DNA from: Vicinamibacterales bacterium
GTDB taxonomy: Bacteria; Acidobacteriota; Vicinamibacteria; Vicinamibacterales; UBA8438
NCBI GenBank assembly: GCA_965263195.1
Contig: OZ253664.1
Location: 3,893,045-3,957,044, forward strand
DNA: 64,000 bases
Direction of reading: 5' to 3'
The translations under genes and the position numbers were made by a program. Of the stretch, positions 31,401 to 49,029 are shown piece by piece. Every line of letters begins with the position of its first letter. The stretch's first letter is position 1. The notes under the pieces are model-generated. The model was not told the DNA's origin. It saw only the letters and a list, made by a program, of their open reading frames with translations, and searched no databases.

Positions 31401-31530
31401 GTGGAAGCCGCCAGCGGGCCAGGGTACGAAGCGACCCCGCCGCCCTTGTTGTCACGGCTTCTGAAGTGGTCCGACGTTATACGCCCGGGCGGCGGAGTCA
31501 GGTCGAAGATAGCAGACCGGGCCGGGCCGC

Positions 31531-32338: not shown

Positions 32339-32393
32339 GGCTTCTCTCCTTGTTCCGCCAGCTGGCGCTCGCGCGTTCGGTTGGTTCCCATAC

Positions 32394-33114: not shown

Positions 33115-33153
33115 TATCGTGAATGATTCGGGAGACAGAGAGGGCGCGCGCCC

Positions 33154-33495
33154 ATGACCAACGGGCCGGCGATCGTCATCAAAGGGAAGTGTTACTTTTG
33201 GCCCGGCGGACTTCGAACCCTGACGCCGCTCGACCCCCACCGGGAACCCAACAGTCAGACTTTCTGGTTCAGTGTGCGGCTTGAGCCGGGGAACAAGGAA
33301 GTGTTTTTTCGGATCGCTTTGGAAGCGATCCAGCGGATGCCGGAGAACACGCCCCAGGGGCGCGGCAAGCACCTTGTAGAACGGCTGATCGCCTGGATCA
33401 AAGAGAGCCCAGACCATCAGTTGGAGGATCTCAACGACTTCCAGGTCTACGTCTCGGACGCCGGCGATACGAGGGTAGAACCTTACGATGGCTGA
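33154..33495 (+). CDS. hypothetical protein upstream of the recombinase remnant
   Basis: 113 aa with balanced composition (MTNGPAIVIKGKCYFWPGG...). Its stop overlaps the next ATG (ATGgcTGA). Confidence 0.55.
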   Translation: MTNGPAIVIKGKCYFWPGGLRTLTPLDPHREPNSQTFWFSVRLEPGNKEVFFRIALEAIQRMPENTPQGRGKHLVERLIAWIKESPDHQLEDLNDFQVYVSDAGDTRVEPYDG

Positions 33496-33880
33496 TTCGG
33501 GTGCCGTGGTCGTGCCGGCGGAGATGGCCATCGGCCGCCCCACGGCGACCGCGCGCCGCCTGGTCAACGCGTCGATGAACGACAACACCCGCCGCGCTTA
33601 CGCCTGCGCCCTGGGCTAGCTCGCCGGCCTCCGGCTCGATGACGCGGCCCTGGCAGCCTACCTCGCCGAGCTCCACGACGCCGGCCGCGCCGCCTCGAGC
33701 GCCGCGATGGCGGTCGCCGCGGCGCGGTTCCGGGCCAAGCTGGCCGGCCAGAAGGACCCCGCCGCCGCGCGGACCGCCCGAGTGCTCGCCGGCTACCGGC
33801 GAACCGCCAGCGATCGCGGCCAGGCCAGCTCGTTCAGCGCCGCGGCCGCCGTCGTCGATGCCGCCGCGATGGGGCTAGTA
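33488..33880 (+). pseudogene. tyrosine recombinase/integrase, N-terminal SAM-like domain only, with an in-frame TAG
   Basis: ...SMNDNTRRAYACALG*LAGLRLDDAALAAYLAELHDAGRAASSAAMAVAAARFRAKLAG...VLAGYRRTASDRGQA. TAG at 33617-33619. The catalytic domain is absent and homology stops before the IS at 33944. Confidence 0.7.
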
Positions 33881-33943
33881 TTAAGGTTTGAACTTCTACG
33901 GTTCCTACGACCCGACCAGCGACGCAGACCGGAAACTTCACCG

Positions 33944-35351
33944 CTAGCAGCCTGTGGCAGAACTGCCTTCTTGCAGCCCTGACAGAATGTGTGAATGAGT
34001 CGGCGTCATCGGGCGAATCCACGATGGAGCGGTCCAATTTTCCGACAGGAGTGCCGCTGAGCGCGATACGAGGCCCCAGAAGCGGCGCAATGCGAGCAGC
34101 AAGGCGTCGACGAGGGCATAGGCGCGGCCCTGGAGGCCGCGCGGCGTCCCGACGCGGAGCAGTTGCCGCATGAGCAGCCCGAGATTCAAGCCGCAGACCT
34201 GCAGGAGCAGGCGCTTGAGGATGTTGCCGTGTCCGCGCAGATGCACCCGGCGCATCCCTCCGGTGGCGTAGAGATGCGCATTGGGACGTTCGAGGCGTTC
34301 ACCGCGCCGACGCAGCAGCCGCTTACCGCGTGCGCCGCGAATCCGTCGCCGGTTGGCATACACCGCGTCACGGGCGACGTGCTTCCCGCGCCAGTTGCGC
34401 CGGCCCCGGTCGGGCTCCGACACGTAGCTGCGGATCTCCACCGCGGCCAACGTGACCAGTGTCTGGTTGCTGTGGTAGCCCTTGTCGCAGACCAGCTCCG
34501 CGATGCCGGGCCCCGCCGGCAGCACCGCGTCGACCTGCTCGGCGGCGGTAACCAGCGTCTCGAGCATCGTCTGGGTATCGCCCGCATCCGCGTCCTGGAC
34601 ACTGACGCCGACCACCGCGCCCGTCTCCAGGTCCACGGCGCGGTTGGCCTTGTGCGCCAAGCGCGTCCTGCCGTCCTTCATCTTCGTGATCTTCGCGTCC
34701 GGGTCCTTGGGATGCGTCCAGTCGTCGTTGGACCCCTTCTTCGGGCGCTTGCGGTCGAAGCGGGCCAGTTCGGGCGCGCGTCGGCGTGGGGATGCCCGAC
34801 GCCGCCGCCAGTCCGCGCAGGAACGTCTCGTAATCCGCGCCCGTATCCCGGCGTACGATGCTGCGAAGCGCCGCATTGGCTTCCAGCGTCGTCGCGTCGA
34901 TGCCGACCGTCTTGCCCCCGACCAGGCCCGCGTCGGCCAGCCGCTGCAGCACCCAGGTGAAGACCGCCAGGTGCGTCTCGACGTCGATCCGACGCCGCGT
35001 GCGCGACACCGTCGAGTGGTCCGGCGGCGCCGCGTCGAGCGACACGTCGAGCAGCTGCCGCAGGCTCAGCGAATCGGCGGCCCGCCACGCAATCGCCCGT
35101 TCCGAGTCCAGCCCCTCGAAGTAGCCGAGCAGCAGCATCCGGAAGTAGCGGCCCGGCGCCAGACTCGGCCGACCGACCCCGTCGGCATAGAACTTGGCGC
35201 ACTGCTCCTCGACGAAGGCGTCGAAGCCCGCCGCGTCGAGAACACGATTCAGGCGTTCGTAAAACGGATGGCCCGCGCTGCGCGGCAGGTCCGAACTGGA
35301 CACCCACATCGACGGCTGCCGCCAGCCACGGCGGCGCTTGCCCATTGCCAT
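33944..35351 (-). CDS. DDE transposase of the IS5/IS1182-like element, encoded in two frames
   Basis: N-part (35351 down): ...HPFYERLNRVLDAAGFDAF...RPSLAPGRYFRMLLLGYFEGLDSERA.... C-part: ...ELARFDRKRPKKGSNDDWTHPKDPDAKITKMKDGRTRLAHK...DKGYHS.... The frames join at a C/G run (34772-34774). The stop lies in the terminal CTAG. Confidence 0.8.
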
Positions 35352-35420
35352 GGAAGGAAGTGTAGTACGGCAGATCGACCCTGTCGATCCCTATCCCGGA
35401 CTTTCACCACAGGCTGCTAG
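33944..35420 (-). mobile_element. IS5/IS1182-like insertion sequence, copy 2 (complete, 1477 bp)
   Basis: Terminal inverted repeats CTAGCAGCCTGTGG (33944-33957) and CCACAGGCTGCTAG (35407-35420). Confidence 0.88.
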
Positions 35421-35570
35421 GCAACGACGGTGGTGAACACATTACCTAAGTTATGCCAAGCCTTAAGCACCGCCTACTGATATCAGGCATCTACACGATC
35501 TTCGTAGGCTTCATTCTTGGATGGGTGAGGCGCCCCCAGTTTTCTTGGACACGGATTAAGGGAGAATCCG

Positions 35571-36008
35571 ATGTCAAAGGAGGTGGGGGGCATGGTTCAG
35601 TCGAGGAGGGTGCAGGGAGCGGGGTCGGCGCGGACGGAGGGAGCCCGGAGGGCGAGCGGAGTCGGCGCCGACGGCGCGGCGGTTGGGGCGGGGGCCTTGG
35701 CGCCCGGCCAGCGGTGGAGCGCGAGCCGGAAACGGGACGTGGTGTTGCGGCTGCTGCGCGGCGAGTCGCTGGAGATGGTCTCGCGTGAAGTCGGGGTAGA
35801 GCTCTATCGCCTGGAGGCGTGGCAGGCGCGGGCGCTGGCCGGTCTCGAGCTCGGTCTGAAGGCGCAGGCCGGTGAGCCGCTGGCCGCCGAGCTGGATGCC
35901 GCCAAGCGCCACATTGGCGAGCTGTCGATGGAGATTGAGCTGTTGCGGGAGCGTGCCCGCGCAGCGGAGTGTCGCCTCCCTTTAGCGACGCGGAGGTCGC
36001 GACGATGA
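35571..36008 (+). CDS. IS orfA (HTH/leucine-zipper transposase N-terminal protein)
   Basis: 145 aa, ...RKRDVVLRLLRGESLEMVSREVGVELYRLEAWQARAL...IGELSMEIELLRER.... Confidence 0.85.
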   Translation: MSKEVGGMVQSRRVQGAGSARTEGARRASGVGADGAAVGAGALAPGQRWSASRKRDVVLRLLRGESLEMVSREVGVELYRLEAWQARALAGLELGLKAQAGEPLAAELDAAKRHIGELSMEIELLRERARAAECRLPLATRRSRR

Positions 36009-36904
36009 GCCGAGCGACCTCCGCGACGACGGGGCGGCGCTATGGTCTCAAGCGGGTGTGTCGAACGTGGGATAGGTCGCGCTCGGCGCTCTACGCGCGG
36101 CGGGCTTGTTTGCGGCGCCCAGAGCGGGGTGATGGCCCGGCGCGCCGCGGGCCGACGCCCGCACTGTCGGATGCGCAGCTGCTGGCGGCCATTCGCACTG
36201 ACCTGGCCCGCTCACCGTTCCAGGGCGAGGGCCATCGCAAGGTCCACGCGCGGCTGCGGATCCTCGACCGGATCCGAGTCTCCCGGACGCGGGTGTTGCG
36301 CGTGATGCGCACGCAGGGGCTGCTCTCGCCGCACCGCGGGCGGCAGGGTGAGATGAAAGCGCACGAGGGGACGATTGTCACCTCGGCGCCCGACGTCATG
36401 TGGGGTACCGACGGCGTGCGGGTGTTCACGGCGGAGGACGGCTGGGTCTGGACCTTCGCGGCGGTGGACCACTGGAACGCCGAGTGCGTGGGCTGGCATG
36501 TGTGCAAGGTGGGGAACCGTTTTGCCGCCCTCGAGCCGATCGCGCAAGGGCTCGGGCGACACTACGGCTCGGTCGAGGCGGACGTGGCCCGCGGGCTGGC
36601 GCTACGGATGGATCACGGCAGCCAGTATCTCTCGGACCACTTTCTCAACCAGCTCCGCTACTGGGGCATCCACCCCAGCTTCGGCTTCGTTGAAGAGCCG
36701 GAAACCAACGGCGTCGTCGAGCGCTGGAATCGCACGCTCAAGGAGCAAGCCATCTACGGCCGGGTCTTTCGAAACCTCGCCGAGGTGCGCGCCGCCGTCG
36801 CCGAGTTCGTCGAACGCTACAACCAGTGCTGGCGCCTCGAGAAGCTGGCGTATCGCACGCCGCTCGAAGCGCGCGAGGAATACGAGCTGCGCCATGCCGC
36901 GTAG
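35969..36904 (+). CDS. IS orfB (rve/DDE integrase-core transposase), expressed as an OrfAB fusion by -1 frameshifting
   Basis: ...WGTDGVRVFTAEDGWVWTFAAVDHWNAECVGW...MDHGSQYLSDHF...PETNGVVERWNRTLKEQ.... The -1 frame is entered at the slippery site. Confidence 0.88.
   Translation: MSPPFSDAEVATMSRATSATTGRRYGLKRVCRTWDRSRSALYARRACLRRPERGDGPARRGPTPALSDAQLLAAIRTDLARSPFQGEGHRKVHARLRILDRIRVSRTRVLRVMRTQGLLSPHRGRQGEMKAHEGTIVTSAPDVMWGTDGVRVFTAEDGWVWTFAAVDHWNAECVGWHVCKVGNRFAALEPIAQGLGRHYGSVEADVARGLALRMDHGSQYLSDHFLNQLRYWGIHPSFGFVEEPETNGVVERWNRTLKEQAIYGRVFRNLAEVRAAVAEFVERYNQCWRLEKLAYRTPLEAREEYELRHAA
35978..36025 (+). promoter_or_regulatory. programmed -1 ribosomal frameshift signal (slippery heptamer plus stem-loop)
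   Basis: C CCT TTA (35978-35984) is X XXY YYZ in the orfA frame. 4 nt later a perfect 12-bp stem forms: CGCGGAGGTCGC (35989-36000) / GCGACCTCCGCG (36014-36025), with a 13-nt loop. Confidence 0.8.
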
Positions 36905-37087
36905 CGCAAACGTGTGTCCAAGAAACCGGGTGCGGTACACATTCTTGGATGGGCTGAAAGCTTCACTTCTGGATGGCATTTCCTAAAGCTGCTCGGAATC
37001 ATCGCTCTACTGCCGATGTTTAAAGCGTTTGTCCCCGGCAATGAGCACATCTTCTTCACCCATGGCTACTGGCGACGTCTGTTCGGC

Positions 37088-37929
37088 CTAACCCTGGACT
37101 AATTTCCGAGCGGTTTTGGCTGGGGTGTTGAGACGCCGGCCGCGGCCATCCGCCGCCGTCGAAACTTCAAGCATCGAGCCATCCCGGCAGCGGTAGCGGT
37201 CCCATGCGCCGCCCCGCGAGCGGCCGAGGTAGCGCACGACGCCATCGAGCCGGATCGGCTCGTTCAGCGCTTCAACCTCCCGACACCAAGCGGCCAGGGT
37301 ATCGGCCGCCGACTGGACCCGACGCCTACCCGGCACGAACCGGACCCCCGCCGCCCATATCCTCAACCAGCCAGCGCCACACCGCCCGGCCGCAGCGCCG
37401 CACAGCGACCCGCAAAACGCCGGCAGTCTGACGCCGCCGCAGGAGCTCCACCGGCACCGCCGACGCCGACCCGCGCAGGTCCTCACCCGCCGCGGCCCGT
37501 TCCACCCACGGCCGCAGCCACTCCGCATCATCGCCGGCCGACTCGCCCAACCACTCAGCCGGCAGCGCCCGCAACCGCCGCAGGACCGCCACCCGGCCCA
37601 CGTCAGCCGGCGCGCACTCTGGATACCGTCTCAGCACGCGCAGCGCCAACGGCACACCCAAATCAGCCGCTCGAGCATCGGCCCGCAACGCCCGCACCCA
37701 GGCCAGCGAGCGGCCCATCAGCCGACGTCGGCAGGGCCGGCGCGTAACGCGGCCCCACCGGCACCGGCCCGACCGGCGGCAGCGGTAGCCACGATACCCC
37801 CGCGGCCGGCACGACGACGACCGGCACATCCCGCAGCCCGGACACGTCGACGACCGGAGTCAACACCCGGTTATCCGGACCCGGCCCGCCGGCCGGCGAT
37901 GTCCCCTTGTTGCTCATGTTGTTGCTCAT
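37088..37929 (-). pseudogene. hypothetical gene(s), reading frame ambiguous or frameshifted
   Basis: Three overlapping minus-strand ORFs in different frames each hold protein-like stretches: MSNNMSNKGTSPAGG... from ATG 37929, ...LAWVRALRADARAADLGVPLALRVLRRYPECAP..., and ...AADTLAAWCREVEALNEPIRLDGVVRY.... This cannot be resolved by eye in such GC-rich DNA. Confidence 0.3.
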
Positions 37930-38043
37930 GCTCGCCCCTCGTTCACCTGTCAAGCTCCCGCATCGGGGCCGCTGCCACCCCGCGCACCCCTATAGCCGCG
38001 TCATGGCCGCCGGGTCGGCCTGACTCACGCTTAGTTGCCCGAG

Positions 38044-38268
38044 CTAGGTTCCGTCCTTCATCAACATCTTGCAGAACAGCCTCACCACGTCGGCCATAGC
38101 ATGCTTGTACTCCTGGGACTTCTTGCGACCCTTGTACTCGACCTGCTTTTCCATAGCAGCAGCGGCCAGTTCGCGCTCCTGGGCTAGATCCTTCTTCCAA
38201 GCGAAATCCCTGAACTTATCGAGAACGATGTTGAGTGCATCTTTACAGCCTTGTTCTCTGTCAGTCAT
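38044..38268 (-). CDS. hypothetical small Lys/Glu-rich protein
   Basis: 74 aa, noticeably AT-richer. Preceded by a tandem 13-bp duplication containing the SD (ACAGGCGGAAGGT x2 on the coding strand, 38277-38302). Confidence 0.55.
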   Translation of the reverse strand: MTDREQGCKDALNIVLDKFRDFAWKKDLAQERELAAAAMEKQVEYKGRKKSQEYKHAMADVVRLFCKMLMKDGT

Positions 38269-38666
38269 GGTCGGTTACCTTCCGCCTGTACCTTCCGCCT
38301 GTGTGAACACCGAGTCTCAAATACGGCCTCGCCTTTCTAGGACGTTTCCGGGCCATTTGGATTCTACTGGTGGAGACCCCGCCACCATGGTGGCTCCCCC
38401 CCCACGCGCTGTGGGGATCGCGGCGTGACGTCCAAGGCGCCAGATGCGTCGTTTGGCCTGCGCCAGCGGACCGGCTGGGTGGTTTGGCCCCGAGGCCCTG
38501 CTGCTCACGCTGCTGACACGGCGGCAACAGACGCGGCAAGTTGCCGTAGGGCAGCTTGTGACGTAGCCCGGTCGCCGACGTGAACAAACCCGCCGCGCTT
38601 CTGCTGGTCGTCTGTGCTCATCGCCACCCGCCTTTCACGAGTTCCACCGAAGGATACTAGAGGTCG

Positions 38667-38921
38667 ATGCCAAAGGTTCGTGAGGCCATCAAGCTGATCG
38701 AAGCCGATGGCTGGCGGAAGGTGACCACGAAAGGCAGCCACCGTCAGTTCAAGTACCCGAGGAAGACCGGACGGGTCACGATTGCGGGACGGCTGTCGGA
38801 CGACTTGGCACCAGGCACGTACACCTCAAGAACGGCGCTGCGCGCGCCGTCGCCGCGGCGCCAGAGGGCCGCGTGGTTCCGCTCTCGCCGCAGGCGGTGG
38901 GGCTGCAGTTTACGGCCGTGA
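38667..38921 (+). pseudogene. HicA-family toxin with aberrant C-terminus, no adjacent HicB
   Basis: MPKVREAIKLIEADGWRKVTTKGSHRQFKYPRKTGRVTIAGRLSDDLAPGT... is canonical HicA. After PGT the frame runs into an Arg/Pro-rich tail instead of the short conserved end. Confidence 0.6.
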
Positions 38922-39005
38922 TGCTCGCGTATGAGGCAAGAACTCGTGCTGCGGTCCGACAGGATTTCCAATCGACATGTGTACCGGCACGCGGTACATT
39001 CCCTC

Positions 39006-39136
39006 ATGATCCGAAGGTTTCGTCATCGCGGACTGAAGGGGTACTGGAGCATTTCAGTTTCCGGCACAACTGGCGGGTGATCTTCCGCTTCGAAGATGGC
39101 GATGCCTACGACGTCGACCTGATCGACTACCACTAG
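39006..39136 (+). pseudogene. HigB (RelE/ParE-superfamily killer) remnant: internal deletion plus frameshift
   Basis: ATG 39006 gives [20 protein letters not shown], then a 2-nt shift into [22 protein letters not shown]. The middle roughly half of a normal HigB is missing. Confidence 0.75.
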
Positions 39137-39150
39137 CAGGAGGCAGCAAC

Positions 39151-39447
39151 ATGGCAATGAGCAATCCCCCGCATCCCGGACGCAGTATCCGCGAGAACTG
39201 CCTGGCCCCGCTCGGTTTGAACGTGACCGAAGCGGCGAAGGTGCTGGGTGTCGCCCGTCACACCCTCTCGCGGGTTCTGAACGGCCACGCGGCCATCTCC
39301 TCGGAGATGGCCATTCGGCTTGAGAAGGCGGGCTGGTCCAATGCCGAGTTCTGGCTGCGCCGACAGACCACTTGGGATCTCGTCCAGGCGCGCAAGGACG
39401 AAGACCGGATCAACGTCGAGCGATACCAGCCGCAGCCGTCGGTCTGA
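39151..39447 (+). CDS. higA: HigA-family antitoxin (XRE HTH)
   Basis: 98 aa, ...[55 protein letters not shown].... Intact. Confidence 0.85.
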
Positions 39448-39550
39448 AGTGATGCAGATCTCATGCTGCAACGGCCACGTGTCATCTCGTCAGAAGGCGG
39501 AGGGCACTCGCCGCAACGGGTCTTCAGGCAACAACACCTTATGGTCCTGT

Positions 39551-39778
39551 GGAGGCGGCGGGACCTGCACCCGCCGCCAGGCGGATCGGGAACAGGTTCC
39601 CGCCTCCTCCACTATTTCTCCACGACCCGGGTCGACTCCAGGGGACTCAGGTGGATTCCAGTAGACTCGGCGGCTGCCGACAAACGCTTGACGTCGAACG
39701 TGTTAGACCACAAACTACGCGTCGTCAGTCAGTTACCGAAACACGCTCGCACGGGTTCGACTCCCGCCGCCTCCACCA
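39551..39778 (+). repeat. ssrA 3'-end remnant block A, ending in a perfect 27-nt copy of the tmRNA 3' terminus (attR-like)
   Basis: 39752-39778 CGGGTTCGACTCCCGCCGCCTCCACCA equals 24668-24694. Upstream lie weaker look-alikes of the same end (39595-39614, 39628-39639) and of the ssrA GTAGA..CGGCGG motif (39659-39673). Confidence 0.85.
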
Positions 39779-39916
39779 CTAAGCCGTTTACGGTCAATGG
39801 CTTACGGTCGTCACTTCCCTGCGCGCGTACCCGTGTCGTCCCAATATGGCAGGTCGGCGGAAATCCGCCGCCGTCACCGATACCGCGGCCCACGGATCTG
39901 GTCGATCGCCGCTACT

Positions 39917-39935
39917 GCTTGCACATATTGCAAGC
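39917..39935. promoter_or_regulatory. palindromic operator-like site upstream of hicA/hicB
   Basis: GCTTGCA-catat-TGCAAGC, 17 nt upstream of the hicA-like ATG. Confidence 0.4.
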
Positions 39936-39951
39936 ATCCGTTAGCGTTCCA

Positions 39952-40209
39952 ATGGTGACGGGTAAGCAGCGCAAGACTCTGACGGCCGTCTTTCGTGATC
40001 CAGTGTCCGGTACCATCGAATAGGCGGCCATCGAAGGGCTGCTCATCGCCGCGGGCGCACGGGTGATCGAGGGTCGTGGGTCACGGGTGCGGTTCGAGAA
40101 AGATGGCGAGGTCGAAACGTTCCACCGCCCGCACCCGACCAAGGAGGCCAAGCATTATCAGATTCGAGCCGCCCGCGCGTTTTTGGAAAGAATGGGGATC
40201 ACACCATGA
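39952..40209 (+). pseudogene. HicA-like (YcfA-type) toxin with in-frame TAG
   Basis: MVTGKQRKTLTAVFRDPVSGTIE*AAIEGLLIAAGARVIEGRGSRVRFEKDGEVETFHRPHP.... TAG 40021-40023 sits where this family has a conserved Trp. Confidence 0.8.
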
Positions 40210-40538
40210 CGAATACCATGACTTACAAGGGGTACTCGGCCCGGATCGACTATGACGACGATGACAGCGTGTTCACCGGCCGGATCGCGGGCATCCGCGA
40301 TGGGGTCGGCTTTCACGCCGATACCGTGGACGCCCTTCGGGAAGCCTTTCATGAGGCCGTGGAGGACTATCTCGAGACTTGTGCCGCGATCGGCAAGCAA
40401 CCCCAGAAGCCCTATTCGGGCCGGATGATGTTTCGCGTCAGCCCCGAAGTACACCGCCAGGCCGCGCTCGCGGCGGAACTGTCCGGCAAGAGCCTGAACC
40501 AGTGGGCCGAAGAAGTACTCCACCGTGCTGCACAGTGA
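40206..40538 (+). CDS. hicB: HicB-family antitoxin
   Basis: 110 aa, MTNTMTYKGYSARIDYDDDDSVFTGRIAGIRDGVGFHADTVDALREAFHEAVEDYLE...RMMFRVSPEVHRQAALAA.... ATGA overlap with hicA. Confidence 0.85.
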   Translation: MTNTMTYKGYSARIDYDDDDSVFTGRIAGIRDGVGFHADTVDALREAFHEAVEDYLETCAAIGKQPQKPYSGRMMFRVSPEVHRQAALAAELSGKSLNQWAEEVLHRAAQ

Positions 40539-40597
40539 CAGGTCATGTGTGAACTCCGAAGGTTTTTCTGGCCGGTACGTGAGCTGGATGCCGGGCC

Positions 40598-40807
40598 ATG
40601 CTGATCGGCTACACCCGCGTCTCGAAGGCAGACGGCTCCCAGTCGCTGGACCTGCAGCGCGACGCGGTGCAGGCCGAGGGCGCCGGCGCAGGCCACGTCT
40701 ACCACGACTTCGCGTCCGGCGTCCGCGACTACCGCCCGGGACTCGACAGCTGCGTGCGCGCGCTCCGGACGGGCGGCGAGCCGGCCAGGGAGGACGGGGA
40801 TCTGTGA
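40598..40807 (+). pseudogene. serine recombinase (resolvase/invertase) N-terminal fragment
   Basis: MLIGYTRVSKADGSQSLDLQRDAVQAEGAGAGHVYHDFASGVRDYRPGLDSCVRALRTG.... Catalytic Ser is present, but the frame ends after 69 aa. Confidence 0.75.
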
Positions 40808-41064
40808 ATCGCAGCGAATACTTGCGCGATTTGTCCGTAGAGGCATTCATTTTGGCCGACCCGGTTCGGCGCGAGCCCGGTGCCGCATCCGCGGTCAACC
40901 CGTCGCCCGACGCCATAGGCCCGCGCACAAATGTCGTCCGCGCGCACACGCTGGGACATCGTAGCGCTGGCGCTCGCGGCCGGCGGCTTCGCTGGTAGCG
41001 GGTCGGTGCTGCTTGGCTCGATCGGCTGGCCCGGCCGGGGGCCTGGCTCTTCGGCGTCTGCTTC

Positions 41065-41325
41065 GTGCTGTTCTCGATCCAGTGGCTTGCACTGATGACA
41101 TGGTTGCCGACCTTCCTGATCGAGACTCAGGGGCGCTCGCTTGCCGGCGCTTCTCTGCTTACGGCGCTCATCGTCTCCGTCACCGCGCTCGGTGCCATCG
41201 CCGGTGCGTCGTTGATGCATCGCGGCGCCGTACGCTGGCTGCGGCATGAGGGGCGGCCTTTCGCCGGCGCCCCGGCGTTGGTGCACGAATACGGTGCGAC
41301 GTTTCGAGGCAGCAGACCAGACTGA
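41065..41325 (+). pseudogene. MFS-type transporter fragment
   Basis: Hydrophobic helices ...LFSIQWLALMTWLPTFLIETQGRSLAGASLLTALIVSVTALGAIAG... with no N-terminal half. Confidence 0.45.
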
Positions 41326-41391
41326 AAGGATGAAACGGAATGAACTAGACTAGTCTGACGTCTAGTCAGTATTCGACGGAGGTAACGCTGC

Positions 41392-41652
41392 GTGAGCAAA
41401 ACATGGCAGGTTCAGGATGCCAAGGCGCGCTTCAGCGAGTTGCTCGAGACGAGCCTCACCGAAGGGCCACAGATCGTGACCAGGCGGGGCGTGGAGGCGG
41501 CCGTGCTGGTTCCTATTGGCGTGTGGCGGCAACTGGAGAAGCGGGCCCGACCGGATCTCAAGGAACTGCTGCTGGCCCCGGAGGCGCGCACCGACGCACT
41601 GACGCCGCCACGGCCACGGCATCGCCACCGTGTGTCTCCGAGCTTCGAGTAA
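41392..41652 (+). CDS. Phd/YefM-family antitoxin
   Basis: (M)SKTWQVQDAKARFSELLETSLTEGPQIVTRRGVEAAVLVPIGVWRQLE.... GTG start. Confidence 0.85.
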   Translation: MSKTWQVQDAKARFSELLETSLTEGPQIVTRRGVEAAVLVPIGVWRQLEKRARPDLKELLLAPEARTDALTPPRPRHRHRVSPSFE

Positions 41653-41656
41653 GCCC

Positions 41657-42079
41657 GTGTATCTGCTCGATACCAACGTCGTATCGGAACTGCGCCGCCC
41701 GCATCCGCATCCAGCGGTCGTCGAATGGCTTGAACAGGTGGCCGCCGATGAGCTGTTGCTGTCCGCGGTGACGGTCGGGGAGATCCAAGCGGGCATCGAA
41801 CTCACCCGCGAGCAGGATATCGCCAAGGCCGAGGAACTGGAGGCGTGGCTCAGCGCGGTACTGGTTTCCTATAGCGTGCTCCCAATGAATGCAGACACAT
41901 TCCGGGCATGGGCGCGGCTCAAGCATCGCCGTTCAGACACCCTGCTGGAGGATGCCATGATCGCCGCGACGGCCTTGGTGCATCGGCTGACGGTCGTGAC
42001 CCGCAACGTGCGCGATTTTGACCAGCTCGGGGTCGATCTCCTGAACCCATTCGAACACGAAGCCGACGTGCGGCGGTAG
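41657..42079 (+). CDS. vapC: PIN-domain toxin VapC
   Basis: (M)YLLDTNVVSELRRP...LLLSAVTVGEIQAGI...DAMIAATALVHRLTVVTRNVRDF. An ATG at 41630 is also possible. Confidence 0.88.
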   Translation: MYLLDTNVVSELRRPHPHPAVVEWLEQVAADELLLSAVTVGEIQAGIELTREQDIAKAEELEAWLSAVLVSYSVLPMNADTFRAWARLKHRRSDTLLEDAMIAATALVHRLTVVTRNVRDFDQLGVDLLNPFEHEADVRR

Positions 42080-42535
42080 GCTGGCGGAATCAAACCCCCG
42101 GAGGTGCCGACGCGACCGTATCGAACAGCTCCTGATCTTCTACGGTCGAGGGCGTGTCCCGTCACGGGGTGGGCCATCCCACCGTCTCCGCGTGCCTCAC
42201 ATCGGTGAGGGCCGGCGGACGGCTGACGGCGCTCTGCTGAGCTCCGTGGACAGCTCTCGACGAGACGACGACTCGGGTGGAGACGACGACGACCGCAGGC
42301 CGTCCCGGCCGGGTTCACGCCTCACGCAAGACCCACGCCCGGAAGGCTTGGATCTCGGGCCGCGGCCGGGCAGCCGCCGTGGTGATGCGGCAGCAGGGGG
42401 CCCGCCGGCGATCCGGACTCAGCCTCGCGCGCGGCGGCGCAGCGCGCGTCCTCCCGTGCCGAGCAGTAGCAGACCGAGTCCTATCGCGCCGGCCACAGGC
42501 AATGCCGGTACAGGTTCCGGCGGCGGGTCGGCTGG

Positions 42536-42865
42536 GTGATTCCCCCACAGGGCAACGCGGACTTCGCGGCGGCGATGGAGAAGGTTCTCGACGTCTACCG
42601 GCGTCCCTACGATGCGGCCTTTCCGGTGGTGTGCATGGACGAGACGCCCCGGCAACTGATCAGTGAGACGCGCGAACCGGTTCCGGCGGCAGCGGGTCGA
42701 CCGGCGCGCGAAGACTACGAGTACCGACGCCGCGGAAGCTGCAATGTGTTCATGGCGACCGAACCCCTGGCCGGGCGGCGCATGACCAAGGTGACGGCGC
42801 GCAGAACCAAAACCGACTGGGCGCACTTCCTCAACGACATCGCCGAGCGCCACCCCGGTGCCAAC
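42536..42865 (+). pseudogene. IS630-family transposase fragment
   Basis: ...NADFAAAMEKVLDVYRRPYDAAFPVVCMDETPRQLISETREPVPAAAGRPAREDYEYRRRGSCNVFMATEPLAGRR.... Both ends missing. Confidence 0.75.
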
Positions 42866-43119
42866 CAGCCGTGCGCATCGCTCCCACTGCACCTGCTGGT
42901 CCAGCGTGAGCGCGTCCGCCACGTCGCCTACCAGATCGTCACGGTCGTCGGTGCTCATCGCTCATCCGGAATCCCACCGCGCAGCCGCGCAGCGCCAGCC
43001 CTCGCGCACGGCGCTCGGCCCGCGGAGTATGTCTCTAATGACGTCTGCCGGGGCGGAACCGGACGGTTTCCGCACGGTGGGCCGTCGGCGCGCGCCCGGG
43101 CGCGCCGGCGGGCGGGACG

Positions 43120-43521
43120 CTACCGGCTGGAGGCCAGCGGCATGACCGCGCTCAGCCGAATGACGGCCCGCTTGAGCGCCTTGCGCGCTGCGTCCGGACT
43201 CGGTAGGCGTTCGATCGCGGCGAGCTGCTCGTAGTTGTACCCCAGTTCCGCCCGGCCGACGATCAGCCGGCGATCGCGGACCTTCAGGCGCTTCAGGCCT
43301 TCCCGGTAACGCCCCCACATCTCATCGTGCAGGCGTTGCTGATACTGCGGCGCCGCCGAGGAGCTGCCCCGCCGCACCCGATTCAGAAGACGCTGCTCGG
43401 AGCCGGGATCCGTGGGATCCGCTCGGCCGGTATCGTTCGACGATGGGGACATGCGGGCGAGGGCGCCGTCCGGCGCGTGCCGCCGTGTGTCGTATCCCGT
43501 GTCTGATTCCATGTCTTGCAT
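43120..43521 (-). CDS. sigma-70 region-4-only protein (probable sigma factor fragment)
   Basis: ...GLKRLKVRDRRLIVGRAELGYNYEQLAAIERLPSPDAARKALKRAVIRL resembles a sigma-4 HTH. No sigma-2 region. Start uncertain (43521 or 43452). Confidence 0.35.
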   Translation of the reverse strand: MQDMESDTGYDTRRHAPDGALARMSPSSNDTGRADPTDPGSEQRLLNRVRRGSSSAAPQYQQRLHDEMWGRYREGLKRLKVRDRRLIVGRAELGYNYEQLAAIERLPSPDAARKALKRAVIRLSAVMPLASSR

Positions 43522-43553
43522 ACGTCGAGCGAACGCGCATGGCACGGCCAGGA

Positions 43554-43820
43554 TCAGACCTCCTTGAGGTGCCCGGCGGCGTACTTGTGCAACAGGCTCG
43601 AGATCAGGGTCTGGTACGGCAACCCCTCGGCCAGCGCGCGCTTCTGGATCGCCTCCAGGTCCTTGCTCGATAGCCGAATATTCAGCCGGCGGTCCTTGCG
43701 GAACGTGGCCTTGGCGTAGCGAGCGTAGCGCGTTCGTGTTTGCTTGCCGCCACCGGTAGATTTCCACTCTCCGCGCTCGACTGACTTGAGCAAGTCCTTT
43801 TCCTTGGCGTCAATCTTCAT
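43554..43820 (-). CDS. BrnA-type (CopG/RHH) antitoxin
   Basis: MKIDAKEKDLLKSVERGEWKS...RLNIRLSSKDLEAIQKRALAEGLPYQTLISSLLHKYAAGHL. Confidence 0.8.
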   Translation of the reverse strand: MKIDAKEKDLLKSVERGEWKSTGGGKQTRTRYARYAKATFRKDRRLNIRLSSKDLEAIQKRALAEGLPYQTLISSLLHKYAAGHLKEV

Positions 43821-44103
43821 GGTCCTCAGACTCCTCACCGAGATACTGAGTTGTGGCCTTCCGACTCGGAATGATCGTCTTCAGGAAGACCGTGTCCTCG
43901 TCCTCGACGTACGGCACCAGATACACGTAGTCGTCGCGTTGGACAACGAAGATGCGTTGGCCGGCGTAACGGTTGGGGTTCGGGTGTTCGAGAATGTCGA
44001 GCAAGTCACCGCGCTCGATATGGAACACGATGTCCTCGAACCCGCTGCCCCGGTCCGCTCTGAGCTTCGCGTTCTTGGCGTCGTCCCAGGTGAAGAATTT
44101 CAC
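43810..44103 (-). CDS. BrnT-type toxin (DUF497-like)
   Basis: MKFFTWDDAKNAKLRADRGSGFEDIVFHIERGDLLDILEHPNPNRYAGQRIFVVQRDDYVYLVPYVEDEDTVFLKTIIPSRKATTQYL. Confidence 0.75.
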   Translation of the reverse strand: MKFFTWDDAKNAKLRADRGSGFEDIVFHIERGDLLDILEHPNPNRYAGQRIFVVQRDDYVYLVPYVEDEDTVFLKTIIPSRKATTQYLGEESEDHED

Positions 44104-44496
44104 TCAGGACAAGGTAGCATAATGTGTGCCCAACAGGCACACATTGGCGTCAGCTAAACTACTCGTATGAGTATTAGTCCATCAGAGCAAGCGTTCGAGG
44201 ACTACTGCACGGCGGTAGGCATAGCAGGTAGACAGGAATCCCGAGGAGCAGGAGTCGGATCGCCAACTGGAAGCGACAGGTGTTGGGAAGGCACTGGGCA
44301 ACACACCAGGCCAACGTGTTCGCAAGAAAATCACCGCCGCCTCGAAGCAGTGTCAAGGCGCTAACTGAGGGACGCCACCCTGCCCTTCGTGTCCGCCATG
44401 GTCGACATCGTATTCCCCTTTCGGAAGATGTCCGCCAAACCGGATTTATGCGGAGCTCCGCATAACCGGATCAAGCCCACGGACCAGCTTTCAGGT

Positions 44497-45899
44497 TCAA
44501 GGAGCCCCGTCACGCGTGTCCCAGACCTTCCGCCACGCCGCGAACTCTCCGGGCGTGATCTGATAACGCGCGAAGTTGCCCTCATGCAGGTGCAGGAGCT
44601 CGGCTTCCGCGACTTCGCGAAAGATTTGCCGTTCGTCGGGAGCGATAGTCTGCTCCACCCGGGAAGCGATGTGAGCGGCGGCCTGCGCTCGTGGCACGCG
44701 TCCGCGCGCACAACCTCGGCGACCACCGCGCGCAACGCGTCGCGGTGCCGCAGCCGGAAAGGGTCCGGCTCACCGAGCGACTGCCGGACCGCCGCATAGC
44801 GCGCGGCCGAGCGCTCGTACGCCCAGATGAAGACATCCCTGAGCAGGTCGACCCTATTCAGCTCATACACGCCGAGGATCGCGTCGGTGTAGAGGCCGCG
44901 CGGCACGTCCGTAAAAGACAGCGGCGAGAGGTTGGTCTTGACGAAGGGGATGTTCGCCGCGATTCGCGATACGCGCTTGTTCACATCGTCGAACGGCTGC
45001 AGGTAGGGCAATTGCGCCATCACGAAGAACGACTGCTCGAACGGATCGGCGATCGCCGCCGCCGTTGCCAGCAGCTGGTCAAAACACTCTTCGACGAGCC
45101 GCGGCGTCTCAGGCGGATGGTAGACTGACCCCTCGATGCCGCCGCCGATATGCCGCAGCCTTCCTGCGGCTCCTTGGTCGGCCAGAAGGTTGTTCGCAAG
45201 GATGGCGTGCAGGTTGAGAATCGTATAGCGGTTGAATCCGATCTCCGCGGCGTTGCCCACGAGAAACTCGACCGCATCCTTGTGGTTGAGGATCATCTGC
45301 GCCTCGAGCCGGTCCCGGCCAGGCGCCTCCTGGCCGAATTCGATCAACCGCCGCGTATCGAGCAGGGAATAGGTGTTGCCCTCAAGGCGGCTTGAGTTCC
45401 ACGACAGATCAATCAGAAGCCGGCTCAGGATCTGCCGGGGGTAAGTGCCCGCCGGTTGCTGCGCGCTCACGTGGCGTTGGCCCGCCTCGGCCAGGCGCGC
45501 GCGCTCTTCGCGGGGCAGATAGAAGCTCTCTCCCGGACGGTACGAGTCCAGAAAACCCCGTTCATAGCCGACCGGATTGCGCGCTCCGGGCGGCTGGCGC
45601 AGATGCGCTCTGATTTCTTCACCGGCGCGTGAGAGCGCGATCCCGGACTCTTCCTCGGCCGGGGTTTCGGCTTTGGCGGCGGCGCGCGTTTCGGGCGCGC
45701 GATATTTCGCCCAGCGTCCCTCGCCCTCCATGACCAGACGCCCGTCATCCACGAGGCGCTTGAGCCGGTACTGCAGCGTCCGGCGCGGCATGGGCGCGCT
45801 CAGCGCCTCCGCGATCTCCGGGGCGGTAACAGCCCCGCCATGCGGGCGCACGGCCTTCTCGATTTCATCCAGCTTGTCTGTAGGCATTGGCCTTGGCAT
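44497..45899 (-). pseudogene. Fic-family protein with N-terminal wHTH, degenerate Fic motif and a C-terminal frameshift
   Basis: ATG 45899 (MPRPMPTDKLDEIEKAV...). Fic_N-like ...LLIDLSWNSSRLEGNTYS is present. The core motif reads QPFDDVNKRVSR instead of HPFxxGNGR. After ...AVVAEVVRAD the protein-like sequence continues in another frame (...AAAHIASRVEQTIAPDERQIF...WDTRDGAP*, stop 44497-44499). Confidence 0.75.
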
Positions 45900-46147
45900 T
45901 GGTGAGGTATCCTCTGAAGTTGCGCCTATACTTATACGAGCAATTAAAACCCATATACGCGCAACAATAAAGTTTACACGCAACTATTGTTGCGCGTAAG
46001 GGTCCAATCTGCCGTATGCGCAACTTCCAGAACCCTCAACACCCTAAAGACGGCGAAGTGGGCTCATCCGACGATGCGATGGCTTTTCGGGGAGTACACT
46101 GCTGCCGAAGCCGGGAACCGACCGGGGCTCGGGCGACCGACTCGTAG

Positions 46148-46365
46148 AGGAGACGGACCCGCACCCGTCGCCGCTTGGCGGCGGATCGGGAACAGGTTCC
46201 CGCCTCCTCCACTATTCCTCCACGAACCGGGTCGATTCGAGGGGACTCAGGTGGATACCAGTAGACTCGACGGCTGCCGACAAACGCTTGACGTCGAACG
46301 TGTTAGACCACAAACTACGCGTCGTCAGTCAGTTACTGAAACAAGCGCGAACGGGTTCGACTCCC
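46148..46365 (+). repeat. ssrA 3'-end remnant block B (homologue of block A, att core degenerate)
   Basis: 46181-46365 aligns with 39581-39765 at a constant offset of 6600 with about 10 substitutions. Only CGGGTTCGACTCCC (46352-46365) of the 27-nt core survives. Confidence 0.8.
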
Positions 46366-46739
46366 TGCCCCCCCGGGTGTTCGTCATTCCTCGGCTGCCG
46401 CCGCCGGGCGGTGCGTCCGCTGCACATCCGGAAGAACGACAAGCGCGGCGGTCGGCAGGACGTTCACCTGCCAGAGTATCGGGGTTTCGGCCCGCTTCAG
46501 CAGCGTTATTGGGGAACACCAGCAACGTAGAATTCGGTATACGTCGTTCCGTCCTGTCCCGTCGGCGTTCTATCGCTCATGCTGCTGCTGGCGCCGGCGC
46601 TGACGCCACTGCACGTGCGCAGTCGCTCCGCGAGGTCGACGGCGTGGAGCTGCACGGCGCGGTGCGGTTGGCGATCTCGGGAGCCGCGACCTGCAACGTC
46701 CTGGAGACGGACACCGATTACGCGGAGAGACCGGCGAAT

Positions 46740-46889
46740 GCTGGGCTTGACGGCCCCGTGCAGGCATTTCTTCTCGTGCAGGGCCGCCAGGGCGTCGGCC
46801 AGCCGGGCCCCGACAGACACCGCCTGCGCGGGGGCGAGCGGCCCGTCCCGCAGACGATCCTCCAGCGTGCCGCCGGCCGGCGCTCGCAT
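46740..46889 (-). pseudogene. Ser/Thr protein kinase fragment
   Basis: ...GGTLEDRLRDGPLAPAQAVSVGARLADALAALHEKKCLHGAVKPS... resembles kinase subdomains V-VIb with a degenerate HRDLKP. No N-lobe and no activation segment. Confidence 0.4.
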
Positions 46890-46959
46890 GTACAGAGAAG
46901 GCCGCGGCGGGGAGCGGTCCCGCCGCGGCGTTTCGTGCGTTAGGCGGCGCCTGCGTCGT

Positions 46960-47611
46960 CCTGCGGGTTGCGGAATTCGATTGCGTTCTGCAACTCGTTG
47001 CGATTGTCGAGAAGGTGCTTCACCTGCGGCCCACCTATCACCTCGGCCCCATCCGCATCATCTGGTATCTGGAGCGGTATCACGGCATCGCGATTGCCGA
47101 GGCGACCGTCTACTGCATCTTGCGGCGCCACGGGCTCAACCGGTTTTACCTCACCGGGTCGCGCGCCGCGCGGTGAGGACGCATCGTTACGCGAAGCAGG
47201 TTCCGGGCCATCGACGACGCCACCCGCATCCGCGCCCTCAAGGTCTATCCGCGCCACACCCAGAAGAACGCCATGCACTTCCTCGACCACGTGATCGACA
47301 CATTCCCGTTTCGCATTCACACGGTCCGCACCGACCGCGGTCATGAGTTCCAAGCCCAGTTTCATTGGCATCTTGCTGACCGCGGGATACGTCATGTCTA
47401 CATCAAGCCGCGTACGCCGCGGCTGAATGGCAAGGTCGAACGCTCACACCGGACGGACAAGCAGGAGTTCTATCAGCTCCTGACCTATACGGGCGATGTC
47501 GACCTCAATGCCAAGCTCGCGGAGTGGGAGCGCTTCTACAACTACCAACGTCCTCACGGAGCCTTTCGGGGCAAGACCCCGTACGAAGCGCTCCGCGAGA
47601 AGCTCGGGTGA
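46960..47611 (+). pseudogene. IS481-family transposase remnant (internal deletion and frameshifts)
   Basis: ...LHLRPTYHLGPIRIIWYLERYHGIAIAEATVYCILRRHGLNR... then ...IDDATRIRALKVYPRHTQKNAMHFLDHVIDTFPFRIHTVRTDRGHEFQ...PRTPRLNGKVERSHRTDKQEF...QRPHGAFRGKTPYEAL, spread over three frames. Confidence 0.8.
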
Positions 47612-48105: not shown

Positions 48106-48400
48106 GTGCCGCTGCGAATCGTATTCAGGCCACAGGCCGAAGGCGAGACGCTTGCGGTGTGCGCATGGTACGAATCGCGACGGACCGGACTCGGCAGGGG
48201 AGTTCGCCGAAGCCGTTGATGCCCTCCTGGATCGCATGGCCGCCAGTCCCCGGGCCTTTCCGCGTGTGCACGGCGAAATCCGGCGCGCCGTCCTCTCGCG
48301 CTTCCCCTACGCGGTTTACTTCCATAAGGTAGCGTGCGGCACAGCGCCGGCCGCCGAGCAGGCCCGCACGCCAGAGGACGTACAGGCACGTCCTGCGCGG
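48106..48400 (+). pseudogene. ParE/RelE-type toxin, frameshifted
   Basis: GTG 48106: VPLRIVFRPQAEGETLAVCAWYESRRTGLG, then a shift into ...EFAEAVDALLDRMAASPRAFPRVHGEIRRAVLSRFPYAVYFHKV. The C-terminal catalytic region is not recognisable. Confidence 0.7.
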
Positions 48401-48929
48401 CGGTTCGGCTCTCTTGTGCCTCTGTCCGCCGGCCACGCGTACGCGTCGCTGGCCGACGCGCGATCGTCGTTCGGTGACAACGGCGGGGGTGGCGATGGTG
48501 CCCTGTAGTGCCTGATCAGCGCGTGGTCGTCTCTGCGGTCCACGATCTCCAGCCGTCCACAGAGGGTCTTCAACGCCCTCGAACATCTGATTGCGAACGA
48601 GGGGTCCGATGAGGGGAAGCGATTACAGCTACAGCTGTAAGCTATTTCTATAGAATGAGTTACCTCGACTCTATGGCAGACGACCAGTCGTCCATCAGCC
48701 GCCGCCGTCGACGAAAACACCACGTAGCGCAAGCCGCAATCGACCGTCGCACCGACCAGCTCCGCCGTCGCCACGCCCTGCCGCGCCGTGGCGTACATGG
48801 AAGTCCTGCCGCCATCTCAACCGGGGATCGTAGTCCAATTCAATTACAGAATAAATAGTCCTGATATATTATTCCTGTGCCGTAATAAAATTATTCTACA
48901 GGGTTTGGCTGGAATTGGCGGTAACTCGC

Positions 48930-48938
48930 TGCTATAAT
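48930..48938 (+). promoter_or_regulatory. extended -10 promoter element TGCTATAAT in an AT-rich intergenic region
   Basis: Lies upstream of the LysR-type gene. Confidence 0.4.
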
Positions 48939-49029
48939 CGTGCCAAAGGGTTCGTTAGCCGTCGGCGAACGCCCTGATATTGGCCAATATGTATTATCCC
49001 TGTGGACTAATTTTATTTATCCTTGGCCC

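Follow-up and report, generated by a model that had tools for sequence, protein, structure and literature searches.

What are the two homologous, non-coding blocks that lie downstream of the tmRNA gene ssrA in a Vicinamibacterales bacterium? The window considered here is the whole stretch of 64,000 nt analysed from contig OZ253664.1 (GCA_965263195.1), and all coordinates below are window positions. In a repeat search of the window, 39580-39774 (block A) matched 46180-46374 (block B) with 93% identity over 195 nt at an offset of 6600, and direct counting between 39581-39765 and 46181-46365 gave exactly 10 substitutions in 185 nt, bearing out the colinearity and the approximate number of differences given in the initial annotation. 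The resemblance is far above chance and extends leftward, with indels, to ~39549 in block A and to ~46144 in block B. Block A terminates in CGGGTTCGACTCCCGCCGCCTCCACCA (39752-39778), identical at 27 of 27 positions to the end of ssrA (24668-24694), and block B retains CGGGTTCGACTCCC (46352-46365), the first 14 nt of this core, before diverging. Both of these ends had been described initially and were seen again here, as was the inverted copy GGAGGCGGCGGG (39551-39562) of the CCCGCCGCCTCC string in block A, which the repeat search returned as a repeat pair.

The features between ssrA and the end of block A are as follows.
24343-24694, plus strand: ssrA (tmRNA gene), the integration target, with tag ADTQLPLAA (ARAGORN; Rfam RF00023, 173.7 bits).
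24668-24694, plus strand: attL core, comprising the last 27 nt of ssrA (T-arm/acceptor/CCA), with an exact repeat at 39752-39778 (repeat search, comparison with G026).
24695-39548, no strand: cargo of island 1, absent from the closest relative, G026.
39549-39751, plus strand: block A, which closes island 1 on its right (far) side and is very probably the attP P arm.
39752-39778, plus strand: attR core of island 1, matching the ssrA 3′ end, with the T-loop TTCGACT at 39756-39762.
39779-39886, plus strand: flank found directly 3′ of ssrA in G026 (88% identity), marking the pre-insertion junction.

The empty site is preserved in G026, the closest syntenic relative, which lacks window positions 24695-39779; there, the 110 nt following ssrA match window 39780-39886, with 88% identity over 138 nt including the core. 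Island 1 (24695-39779; 15.1 kb) entered at ssrA, ahead of older mobile DNA, and the 24.7-54 kb stretch 3′ of ssrA is made up of stacked, decayed mobile elements. Two identical IS5-like copies and one IS3 form part of the island 1 cargo, alongside HicA and HigB/HigA genes and what remains of a restriction-modification system. The only recombinase trace is an N-terminal stub containing a stop codon, and integrases of the block's family are missing from the cargo. A profile search of the window returned no PF00589 matches between ssrA and block B, and neither a family integrase (tblastn) nor a P′ arm was found anywhere in this genome. The window accordingly shows only half of the structure expected of an attP site, an observation that we counted against the attP reading.

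The initial annotation derived the blocks from decayed copies of the ssrA 3′ end, with internal look-alikes of the tmRNA terminus left by serial integration. Indeed, the block contains short strings resembling that terminus (CCTCCAC, GGGTCGACTCC and GTAGACTCGGCGG, plus the inverted CCCGCCGCCTCC). However, block A without its core aligned to the ssrA body with a local score of 14, compared with 14.3 ± 2.5 for random genome segments, and to the 90-nt ssrA terminus with a score of 14, compared with a null of 10.5 ± 1.8, 6% of random segments reaching 14. Moreover, the ssrA-like strings are conserved also in relatives targeting selC or tRNA genes, and their spacing and phasing are fixed, an order that decay would not preserve. 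A stack of decayed fragments from many rounds of integration is thus highly unlikely. The similarity to ssrA is at chance level, and the motifs are nonetheless real, conserved features of a family.

The arm of block A displays the following elements.
39549-39612, plus strand: inverted repeat GTGGAGGCGGCGGGACC ... GGTTCCCGCCTCCTCCAC bordering the arm on the left, read from the sequence.
39607-39623, plus strand: CTCCACTATTTCTCCAC, a pair of CTCCAC units at 11-nt spacing that is proposed to provide arm-type sites for the integrase.
39627-39640, plus strand: T-arm look-alike CCGGGTCGACTCCA.
39641-39668, plus strand: three 10-nt-phased units, GGGGACTC / GTGGATTC / GTAGACTC.
39696-39709, plus strand: conserved box GAACGTGTTAGACC.
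39724-39736, plus strand: position of the IHF-consensus-like motif, degenerate in block A (GTCAGTCAGTTAC).

The left arm of the inverted repeat is a CTCCAC unit in inverted orientation, and its consensus in other copies, GTGGAGGAGGCGGAACC, is a near-perfect complement of the right repeat arm. Within this genome, the CTCCAC pair at 11-nt spacing is confined to the four blocks. The T-arm look-alike hardly varies within the family, and in every member 126-128 nt separate it from the true T-loop downstream. In relatives, the phased units appear as GGAGAC or as GTGGAGAC, the reverse complement of GTCTCCAC, and the IHF-like motif reads ATCA(A/C)NNNNTTA, 31-32 nt ahead of the T-loop; 9 of 25 members match it strictly, each of them from the divergent clade. 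The helically phased repeats are most likely arm-type sites for the N-terminal domain of the integrase, and the ATCAAnnnnTTA motif ~31 nt ahead of the T-loop most probably serves IHF as a bending site; that proteins would bind these repeats and the IHF-like motif we infer from sequence.

Blocks of this family, ~170-230 bp in length, occur in four copies in this Vicinamibacterales genome and in dozens across Acidobacteriota and beyond. All of the ~35 members end in GGG-TTCGAnT-CCC followed by a tmRNA- or tRNA-type 3′ end, which may be that of ssrA (CGCCTCCACCA), selC (GCGCTTCCGCCA), a tRNA-Ser-type gene or others. Arms from different genera and classes are 87-98% identical, a figure that drops to ~70% where the elements have different targets. 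Arms of the main type, 87-98% identical over Vicinamibacterales genera and Terriglobia, reach four or more copies per genome, many of them at a distance from ssrA. An intact P-core-P′ arrangement, combined with common right flanks of 0.5-0.9 kb, is seen for some of these arms. The conservation of the arms is unusually high and even, which we weighed against the attP-arm reading.

Three relatives (G020, G065 and G104) display a layout in which the target gene is followed by a tyrosine integrase gene, 15-41 kb of cargo, and the block with a repeat of the gene's 3′ end. In G020, a 377-aa integrase (Pfam PF00589, 99.6 bits) starts 10 nt beyond tRNA-Sec (selC; 1204869-1204965), and the block, 15 kb away, closes with 37 nt that repeat the selC end. 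G065 carries selC and an integrase 75% identical to that of G020, with the block and the selC 3′ end on a separate contig; G104 carries ssrA and an integrase 62% identical, with a block variant and the ssrA 3′ repeat 41 kb downstream. The cognate integrase also lies beside the target gene in two metagenome contigs (L183 and L185) and is absent from the window and its genome. In G020, G065 and G104, the tandem (G)TCTCCAC n3 (G)TCTCCAC recurs 43-66 nt past the target gene, in the same orientation, within the 3′ end of the integrase gene. In G020, GTCTCCACAATGTCTCCACGA is present in the P and P′ arms (25 of 27 positions identical), the motif is likewise found in both arms of G065, and in G104 the P′ arm carries TCTCCAGCATATCTCCACG and the P arm TCTCCACTATTTCTCCAAG. 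The exact motif of the window blocks was found within integrase 3′ ends in metagenomes, namely in L183, L185 and seven partial cases, one of these 3′ ends adjoining tRNA-Asp. The P′ arm sites overlap the last codons of the integrase (RGDIVET / RGEIVE tail).

The blocks are therefore very probably the P arms of attP sites of tyrosine-integrase islands that target tmRNA and tRNA genes, inserting around the T-loop. The proposal of a conserved attP arm shared by related elements, already made from the window, is sustained by the island-end blocks of G020, G065 and G104 and by the empty site in G026. The island family is hosted by Acidobacteriota and some other soil phyla. The predicted circular form would consist of the P arm (the block), a core identical to the 3′ end of the target gene, and a P′ arm overlapping the last codons of the integrase; integration would leave the integrase gene and P′ arm beside the regenerated target gene, with the block and, after it, the gene's displaced 3′ fragment marking the island's far end. 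Excision and the formation of a circle are predicted steps. In the window, a 15.1-kb island would have entered ssrA ahead of older mobile DNA ending in a related arm, block B. Neither window element keeps an integrase or a P′ arm, and both would therefore be stranded, att-flanked remnants resembling cis-mobilizable elements.

Could the block instead be a structured non-coding RNA gene, such as an island-borne tRNA- or tmRNA-like RNA with a T-arm/acceptor/CCA 3′ end? It does comprise ~170 nt of conserved non-coding sequence with a tRNA-like 3′ end and an encoded CCA, three sequences have C-G swapped to G-C at one predicted pair, and there are weak, sub-threshold Rfam matches to tmRNA (21.6 bits, cut-off 47) and, on the minus strand, to Acido-1 (26.3, cut-off 50); in the Rfam search of the blocks, no family reached the gathering score. 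However, RNAalifold yielded -12.9 kcal/mol with a covariation term of ~0 for 15 sequences (207 columns) and only -1.9 (forward) and -2.3 (reverse) kcal/mol for 24 non-redundant diverse members, which share no common RNA fold. These two analyses uphold the earlier preference against a structured RNA. Furthermore, there is no conserved 5′ acceptor strand complementary to the 3′ end, the tRNA-like end varies with the target gene exactly as expected of an att core, and the conservation falls on phased repeats, direct and inverted, which are found again in the P′ arm within a protein-coding gene. An RNA gene is thus extremely improbable. The 10-11-nt phasing, the fixed distance of 126-128 nt and the fixed position of the IHF-like motif constitute an anatomy of the DNA type, which we counted in favour of the attP reading. 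What the blocks represent is ordinary mobile-element anatomy rather than a new RNA gene, and no new kind of biology.

It had been anticipated that homologues far from ssrA or tRNA sites would speak against an att arm. Such homologues exist: copies C and D of this genome, together with several near-identical ones elsewhere, lie far from ssrA, some of them with an ssrA-type core. These copies keep tDNA-type ends within island mosaics, and the att-arm reading stands. In three cases (L064, L099 and L113), block and core were seen joined to the C-terminal stub of an integrase, as expected of tandem arrays. The dispersed copies, at least four each in this genome and G104 and some away from any tRNA or tmRNA gene, could also suggest that the block and core form an independent small mobile or recombinogenic unit, MITE-like or a hot spot of illegitimate recombination. 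The terminal inverted repeat at the left edge of the main type and a duplicated 2.37-kb block-containing unit (99.9% identity) in Terriglobia OZ244973.1 are consistent with such a unit. However, no target-site duplications were seen, the left boundary is not fixed (left flanks differ and the start of homology varies by copy), the right boundary is always in the T-loop/T-stem, and the duplicated units are far larger than the block, with different ends of their own. We consider this explanation very unlikely.

Block B and its surroundings comprise the following features.
39887-46143, no strand: cargo of putative island 2, without an integrase.
46144-46351, plus strand: block B, the second copy of the probable P arm, with CTCCAC units at 46207-46223.
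46352-46365, plus strand: half core CGGGTTCGACTCCC, in which identity to ssrA stops just past the T-loop/T-stem.
46366-46998, plus strand: right flank of block B, with a protein-kinase gene fragment on the minus strand.
48326-48710, plus strand: non-coding-looking segment.

Putative island 2 carries a HicA-like gene with an in-frame stop, HicB, PIN/VapC and a BrnT/BrnA-like pair, as well as a Fic protein and an IS630 fragment. The block B junction and 600-800 bp of its right flank are 95-96% identical in two other genomes, G087 and G088, where they are located away from ssrA. Simple in-situ decay of the block B core was rejected, because the same junction is conserved in these two genomes. The right junction of block B is a conserved alternative sequence rather than a decayed ssrA end, an observation weighed against the attP reading. 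Homologues of 48326-48710 are found directly 3′ of block and core in several other genomes (91-93% identity); in the window, this segment has been shifted 2 kb away from block B and is joined to a truncated ParE/RelE-like ORF. Given that the junction recurs in G087 and G088, the limits and history of putative island 2 are uncertain: of the initial proposal of two related elements in tandem, with a second island at 39779-46365, the relatedness of the arms holds, and the limits of that island are tentative.

The attP sites of heterobivalent tyrosine integrases (lambda, HP1, L5, P4-like) consist of a P arm with arm-type Int and IHF sites, a core, and a P′ arm. Similarly, the ~170-230-bp block arm adjoins the core and the integrase gene abuts the core's other side; short repeats phased by one helical turn are present in both arms and both orientations, and an IHF-consensus motif lies between the arm sites and the core. 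The block family differs in that its integrases are only distantly related to the lambda protein, the P′ sites are inside the last codons of the integrase, and the arm contains a conserved T-arm look-alike 126-128 nt from the true T-loop. Islands in tRNA and tmRNA genes, attP sites in the T-stem region and tandem arrays have been documented by Islander, in which the tmRNA gene is the most favoured target and one integrase is required per island (PMC4383910). The window islands share with them the regenerated target gene, the displaced 3′ fragment at the far end, the T-stem/loop crossover and stacking at ssrA, but have no integrase and would therefore be filtered out or scored as damaged under the Islander criteria. 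CIMEs, defined in Streptococcus ICE systems, have lost the integration and transfer genes and keep attL and attR (PMC6323972). Like them, island 1 has a perfect 27-nt att repeat at both ends and an apparently intact P arm without an integrase; unlike them, its P′ arm is gone and the genome has no partner element carrying a matching integrase, and any mobilization of it is hypothetical.

The attP-arm reading explains the conspicuous non-coding repeat 3′ of ssrA for annotation purposes and provides a signature for Acidobacteriota island ends, even integrase-less ones: CTCCACnnnnnCTCCACGAnCnGGGTCGA and, ~126 nt later, a T-loop and tDNA end. The family offers natural att sites and integrases with varied tRNA and tmRNA specificities and a common arm, of possible interest for genome-engineering integrase mining. 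We regard it as unlikely, if conceivable, that integrase-less islands of the main type are still moved among Acidobacteriota classes by integrases supplied in trans or by accretion, in the manner of CIME hitchhiking; were this true, selection for mobilizability would be preserving the arm, which would not be a fossil.

The initial annotation had described two homologous blocks separated by about 10 substitutions, and a direct count of 39581-39765 against 46181-46365 gave exactly 10 substitutions in 185 nt. A repeat search of the window returned the same pair as 39580-39774 and 46180-46374 (195 nt, 93% identity, offset 6600), and once small indels are allowed, the homology reaches left to about 39549 in block A and 46144 in block B. 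The perfect att core attributed to block A is present: CGGGTTCGACTCCCGCCGCCTCCACCA (39752-39778) is the last 27 nt of ssrA (24668-24694). Block B, as described, keeps the first 14 core nucleotides (46352-46365) and is divergent beyond them.

7489-7671, plus strand: 6S RNA gene (Rfam RF00013, 72.6 bits)
24343-24694: ssrA, the one tmRNA gene in the window (ARAGORN; Rfam RF00023, 173.7 bits)
29139-29438 and 34086-34385: IS5-like copies in island 1, 100% identical, 4947 bp apart
39955-40202, plus strand: HicA-like toxin ORF with an in-frame stop (...SGTIE*AAIEG...)
40206-40538: intact HicB antitoxin gene directly downstream of the HicA-like ORF (Pfam HicB, 80 bits)
46366-46998: right flank of block B, containing a Ser/Thr protein-kinase-like gene fragment, minus strand, ORF 46506-46889

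We consider it very probable that the blocks are the P arm of the attP of a tDNA-targeting integrase family. The att-arm reading, already favored in the initial annotation, is borne out by an empty site in the closest relative (G026) and by the succession of target gene, integrase and far-end block with repeat in two others (G020 and G104). G026 is the sole same-genus genome in which the upstream gene and ssrA are syntenic with the window (89% identity), and the 110 nt after its ssrA match window 39780-39886 at 88%. Because G026 has this empty site, 24695-39779 (15,085 bp; island 1) is an insertion flanked by the 27-nt repeat, and block A forms its right end. The two genomes become syntenic again only near 53976, and the whole 24.7-54 kb stretch is thus stacked mobile DNA. 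Besides the two identical IS5-like copies, island 1 contains an IS3 element, genes for HicA and HigB/HigA, and further remnants; between it and block B are genes for HicB, a PIN toxin, a BrnT/BrnA-like pair and a Fic protein. In G026 itself, about 21 kb of unrelated mobile DNA without a block lies 0.2-21.7 kb downstream of ssrA (contig C1; L119, L120), including a piece 94.7% identical to the region upstream of block copy C in the genome under study.

The 5.0-Mb genome carries four block copies, A and B in the window and two elsewhere:

C1:2552699-2552936, minus strand: copy C, 96% identical, with an ssrA-like core bearing two changes at its end
C1:3376892-3377089: copy D, 91% identical, 600 bp from tRNA-Asn and beside a truncated integrase

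In the taxonomic family, nine other genomes from several genera have near-identical copies (87-96%), and others have relatives of about 70% identity. In a wider survey, 185,579 species genomes were scanned for a pattern and a profile search was then run; about 35 members emerged, from Vicinamibacterales, Terriglobia and other Acidobacteriota, together with single contigs labelled delta-proteobacterium and Myxococcales. A weak tmRNA-like match at G104:1897724 proved to be no block. For the expectation that block homologues sit at island ends next to ssrA, the search of the genome and its relatives gave a mixed answer: every member has a tDNA-type end, but copy C lies at a non-tRNA site and the junctions of the block B type in G087 and G088 lie far from ssrA.

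All members close with a T-arm-like GGG-TTCGAnT-CCC followed by a tRNA- or tmRNA-type 3' end, which may be that of ssrA (CGCCTCCACCA), of tRNA-Sec (GCGCTTCCGCCA, whose 8-bp acceptor is characteristic of selC), tRNA-Ser-type or another. The T-loop letters vary jointly with the ending of the member, which is the behavior of an att core and not of a gene's own 3' end. The island in G020 (OY759970.1) spans 15 kb, with the block at its far end:

1204869-1204965: tRNA-Sec gene
10 nt past tRNA-Sec, opposite strand: tyrosine integrase, 377 aa (Pfam Phage_integrase, 99.6 bits, plus a SAM-like N-domain)
1219942-1220115: block, closed by a 37-nt repeat of the selC 3' end

G104 encodes a 62%-identical integrase directly after ssrA, and a block variant with the ssrA 3' end follows 41 kb downstream in the same orientation. 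In G065, selC and a 75%-identical integrase share one contig, and a block ending in the selC 3' end is on another. At three further loci, block, core and an integrase C-terminal stub stand in a row, as expected for tandem-array junctions.

The anatomy of the arm was read from an alignment of diverse members. A variable hairpin comes first, then two (G)TCTCCAC units 11 nt apart (CTCCACTATTTCTCCAC in window-type blocks), and then a nearly invariant T-arm look-alike, GACCGGGGTCGATTCC, which lies 126-128 nt from the true T-loop in all members. Three 10-nt-phased units follow (GGGGACTC, GTGGATTC and GTAGACTC in the window), which in relatives read GGAGAC or GTGGAGAC, the reverse complement of the first units; after them stands a conserved box, GAACnnGTTAGACC. 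In 9 of 25 members, all from the divergent clade, ATCA(A/C)NNNNTTA occurs 31-32 nt before the T-loop, in agreement with the IHF consensus WATCAANNNNTTR. Hairpins near the ATCAAnnnnTTA region were considered as a covarying stem and rejected: their register varies among members, and the letters that are conserved match the IHF consensus.

Most telling, the tandem CTCCAC motif reappears on the other side of the core, again in the same orientation and 43-66 nt beyond the target gene (G020, G065 and G104). It lies there within the last integrase codons and encodes an RGDIVET-type tail; in G020 this region is identical to the P-arm copy at 25 of 27 positions. A metagenome scan located the exact CTCCAC motif of the window's blocks in P arms as well as in the 3' ends of integrase genes: 48 nt after tRNA-Asp with a full-length integrase (L183), with another full-length integrase (L185), and in seven partial cases. 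Within the genome under study, the spaced CTCCAC pair is confined to the four blocks. The attP site of a lambda-type integrase classically has short repeats in both arms, phased by one helical turn, and a bending-protein motif between the repeats and the core. The block family shares with this layout the repeats in both arms, the helical phasing and the IHF-like motif; judged from these motifs, the arm repeats would be bound by protein.

Alternatively, the blocks could be a gene for a structured RNA, which the initial annotation had rated less likely; the folding results agree, with no conserved structure and covariation near zero. For 15 sequences (207 columns), RNAalifold gave -12.9 kcal/mol and a covariation term of +0.12; for 24 non-redundant members, run with column-shuffle controls, it gave -1.9 (forward) and -2.3 kcal/mol (reverse), with covariation of about 0. 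The Rfam scan of the window matched no RNA family to the block at gathering score, and a permissive scan of seven loci yielded only sub-threshold matches, to tmRNA (21.6/47 bits, due to the core) and, on the other strand, to Acido-1 (26.3/50 bits). ARAGORN found no tRNA or tmRNA gene hidden in the block at 15 loci. A 'mini-tmRNA' composed of 5'-like and 3'-like ssrA parts was also rejected: its presumed 5' acceptor strand lacks complementarity to the 3' end, and the resemblance does not exceed chance.

The proposal that the blocks are built from decayed copies of the ssrA 3' end did not hold. Without its core, block A scored 14 against the ssrA body (random genome segments, 14.3 +/- 2.5) and 14 against the 90-nt ssrA terminus (10.5 +/- 1.8), the latter marginally better, with 6% of random segments reaching 14; moreover, the same strings are kept in relatives that target selC or tRNA genes. 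The three ssrA-like strings correspond to the CTCCAC unit, the T-arm look-alike and the third phased unit and are, on their sequence, functional-looking arm features and not decay products. The 12-nt perfect inverted match reported in block A exists, but its pairing with the core is partly accidental: other copies carry GTGGAGGAGGCGG as the left string, the complement of the internal CCGCCTCCTCCAC and not of the core.

The right junction of block B, GACTCCC followed by TGCCCCCCGGGTG, recurs with 600-800 bp beyond it at 95-96% identity in G087 and G088, far from their ssrA. Block B was therefore probably imported with its right flank and did not decay in place. The flank 46366-46998 accompanies the block in both genomes. 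Two kilobases from block B, window 48326-48710 is 91-93% homologous to DNA directly after block and core in several other genomes; it is joined to a truncated ParE/RelE-like frame whose last residues are RFPYAVYFHK, and unusually AT-rich stretches follow (48620-48940).

After copy C comes a 944-nt flank; 7.67 kb upstream stands a second copy of this flank (98% identity), with the core-like TCGACTCCCGCCGCCCCCACCA. C1:2552699-2560393 has a tandem-like attL ... P-core-P' layout and does not lie at a tRNA gene. The start of the flank repeat falls within the T-loop, and this makes the T-loop the likely crossover region. This unit contains a DNA methyltransferase-like ORF, an ArdC-like ORF and IS5, and no integrase; six-frame reading of the conserved ~780 bp upstream of copy C produced only an unconvincing 112-aa ORF. 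At C1:3376203-3377089, tRNA-Asn is followed on the opposite strand by the last 201 aa of another integrase, whose truncated 5' end adjoins copy D; the core of copy D is degenerate (AAGTGTTCCGCTCCC). A Terriglobia MAG (OZ244973.1) has two copies, 99.9% identical, of a 2.37-kb unit that encloses the block (L096 1271-3638, L068 3576-5944). Over the 2.3 kb up to the core, the unit matches Vicinamibacterales copies (L095, L111) at 97.6-98.4% identity, implying that DNA has recently passed between classes.

In a PF00589 scan of the whole genome, ssrA and block B had no tyrosine-recombinase catalytic domain between them. A tblastn search with the G020 integrase as query found no family homologue in the genome or, at E up to 50, in the window; matches inside the blocks are the arm motif that in P' arms encodes the integrase tail. 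The stretch has a single recombinase trace:

about 33490-33980, plus strand: tyrosine-recombinase-like N-terminal (SAM-like) stub with an in-frame stop

This stub is truncated by the second IS5 copy and is unrelated to the N-terminus of the block-family integrase. Thus, the islands are att-flanked, integrase-less remnants, a state termed cis-mobilizable elements in the ICE literature (PMC6323972). Among 104 genomes of the taxonomic family, no cognate integrase was seen with main-type arms, those nearly identical to the window's blocks; integrases matching such arms exist in metagenomes. That integrase-less main-type units are still mobilized in trans appears unlikely. The general principles of islands of tDNA-targeting integrases have been described (PMC4383910); as P arms, the blocks are ordinary biology and represent a new, well-delimited member.
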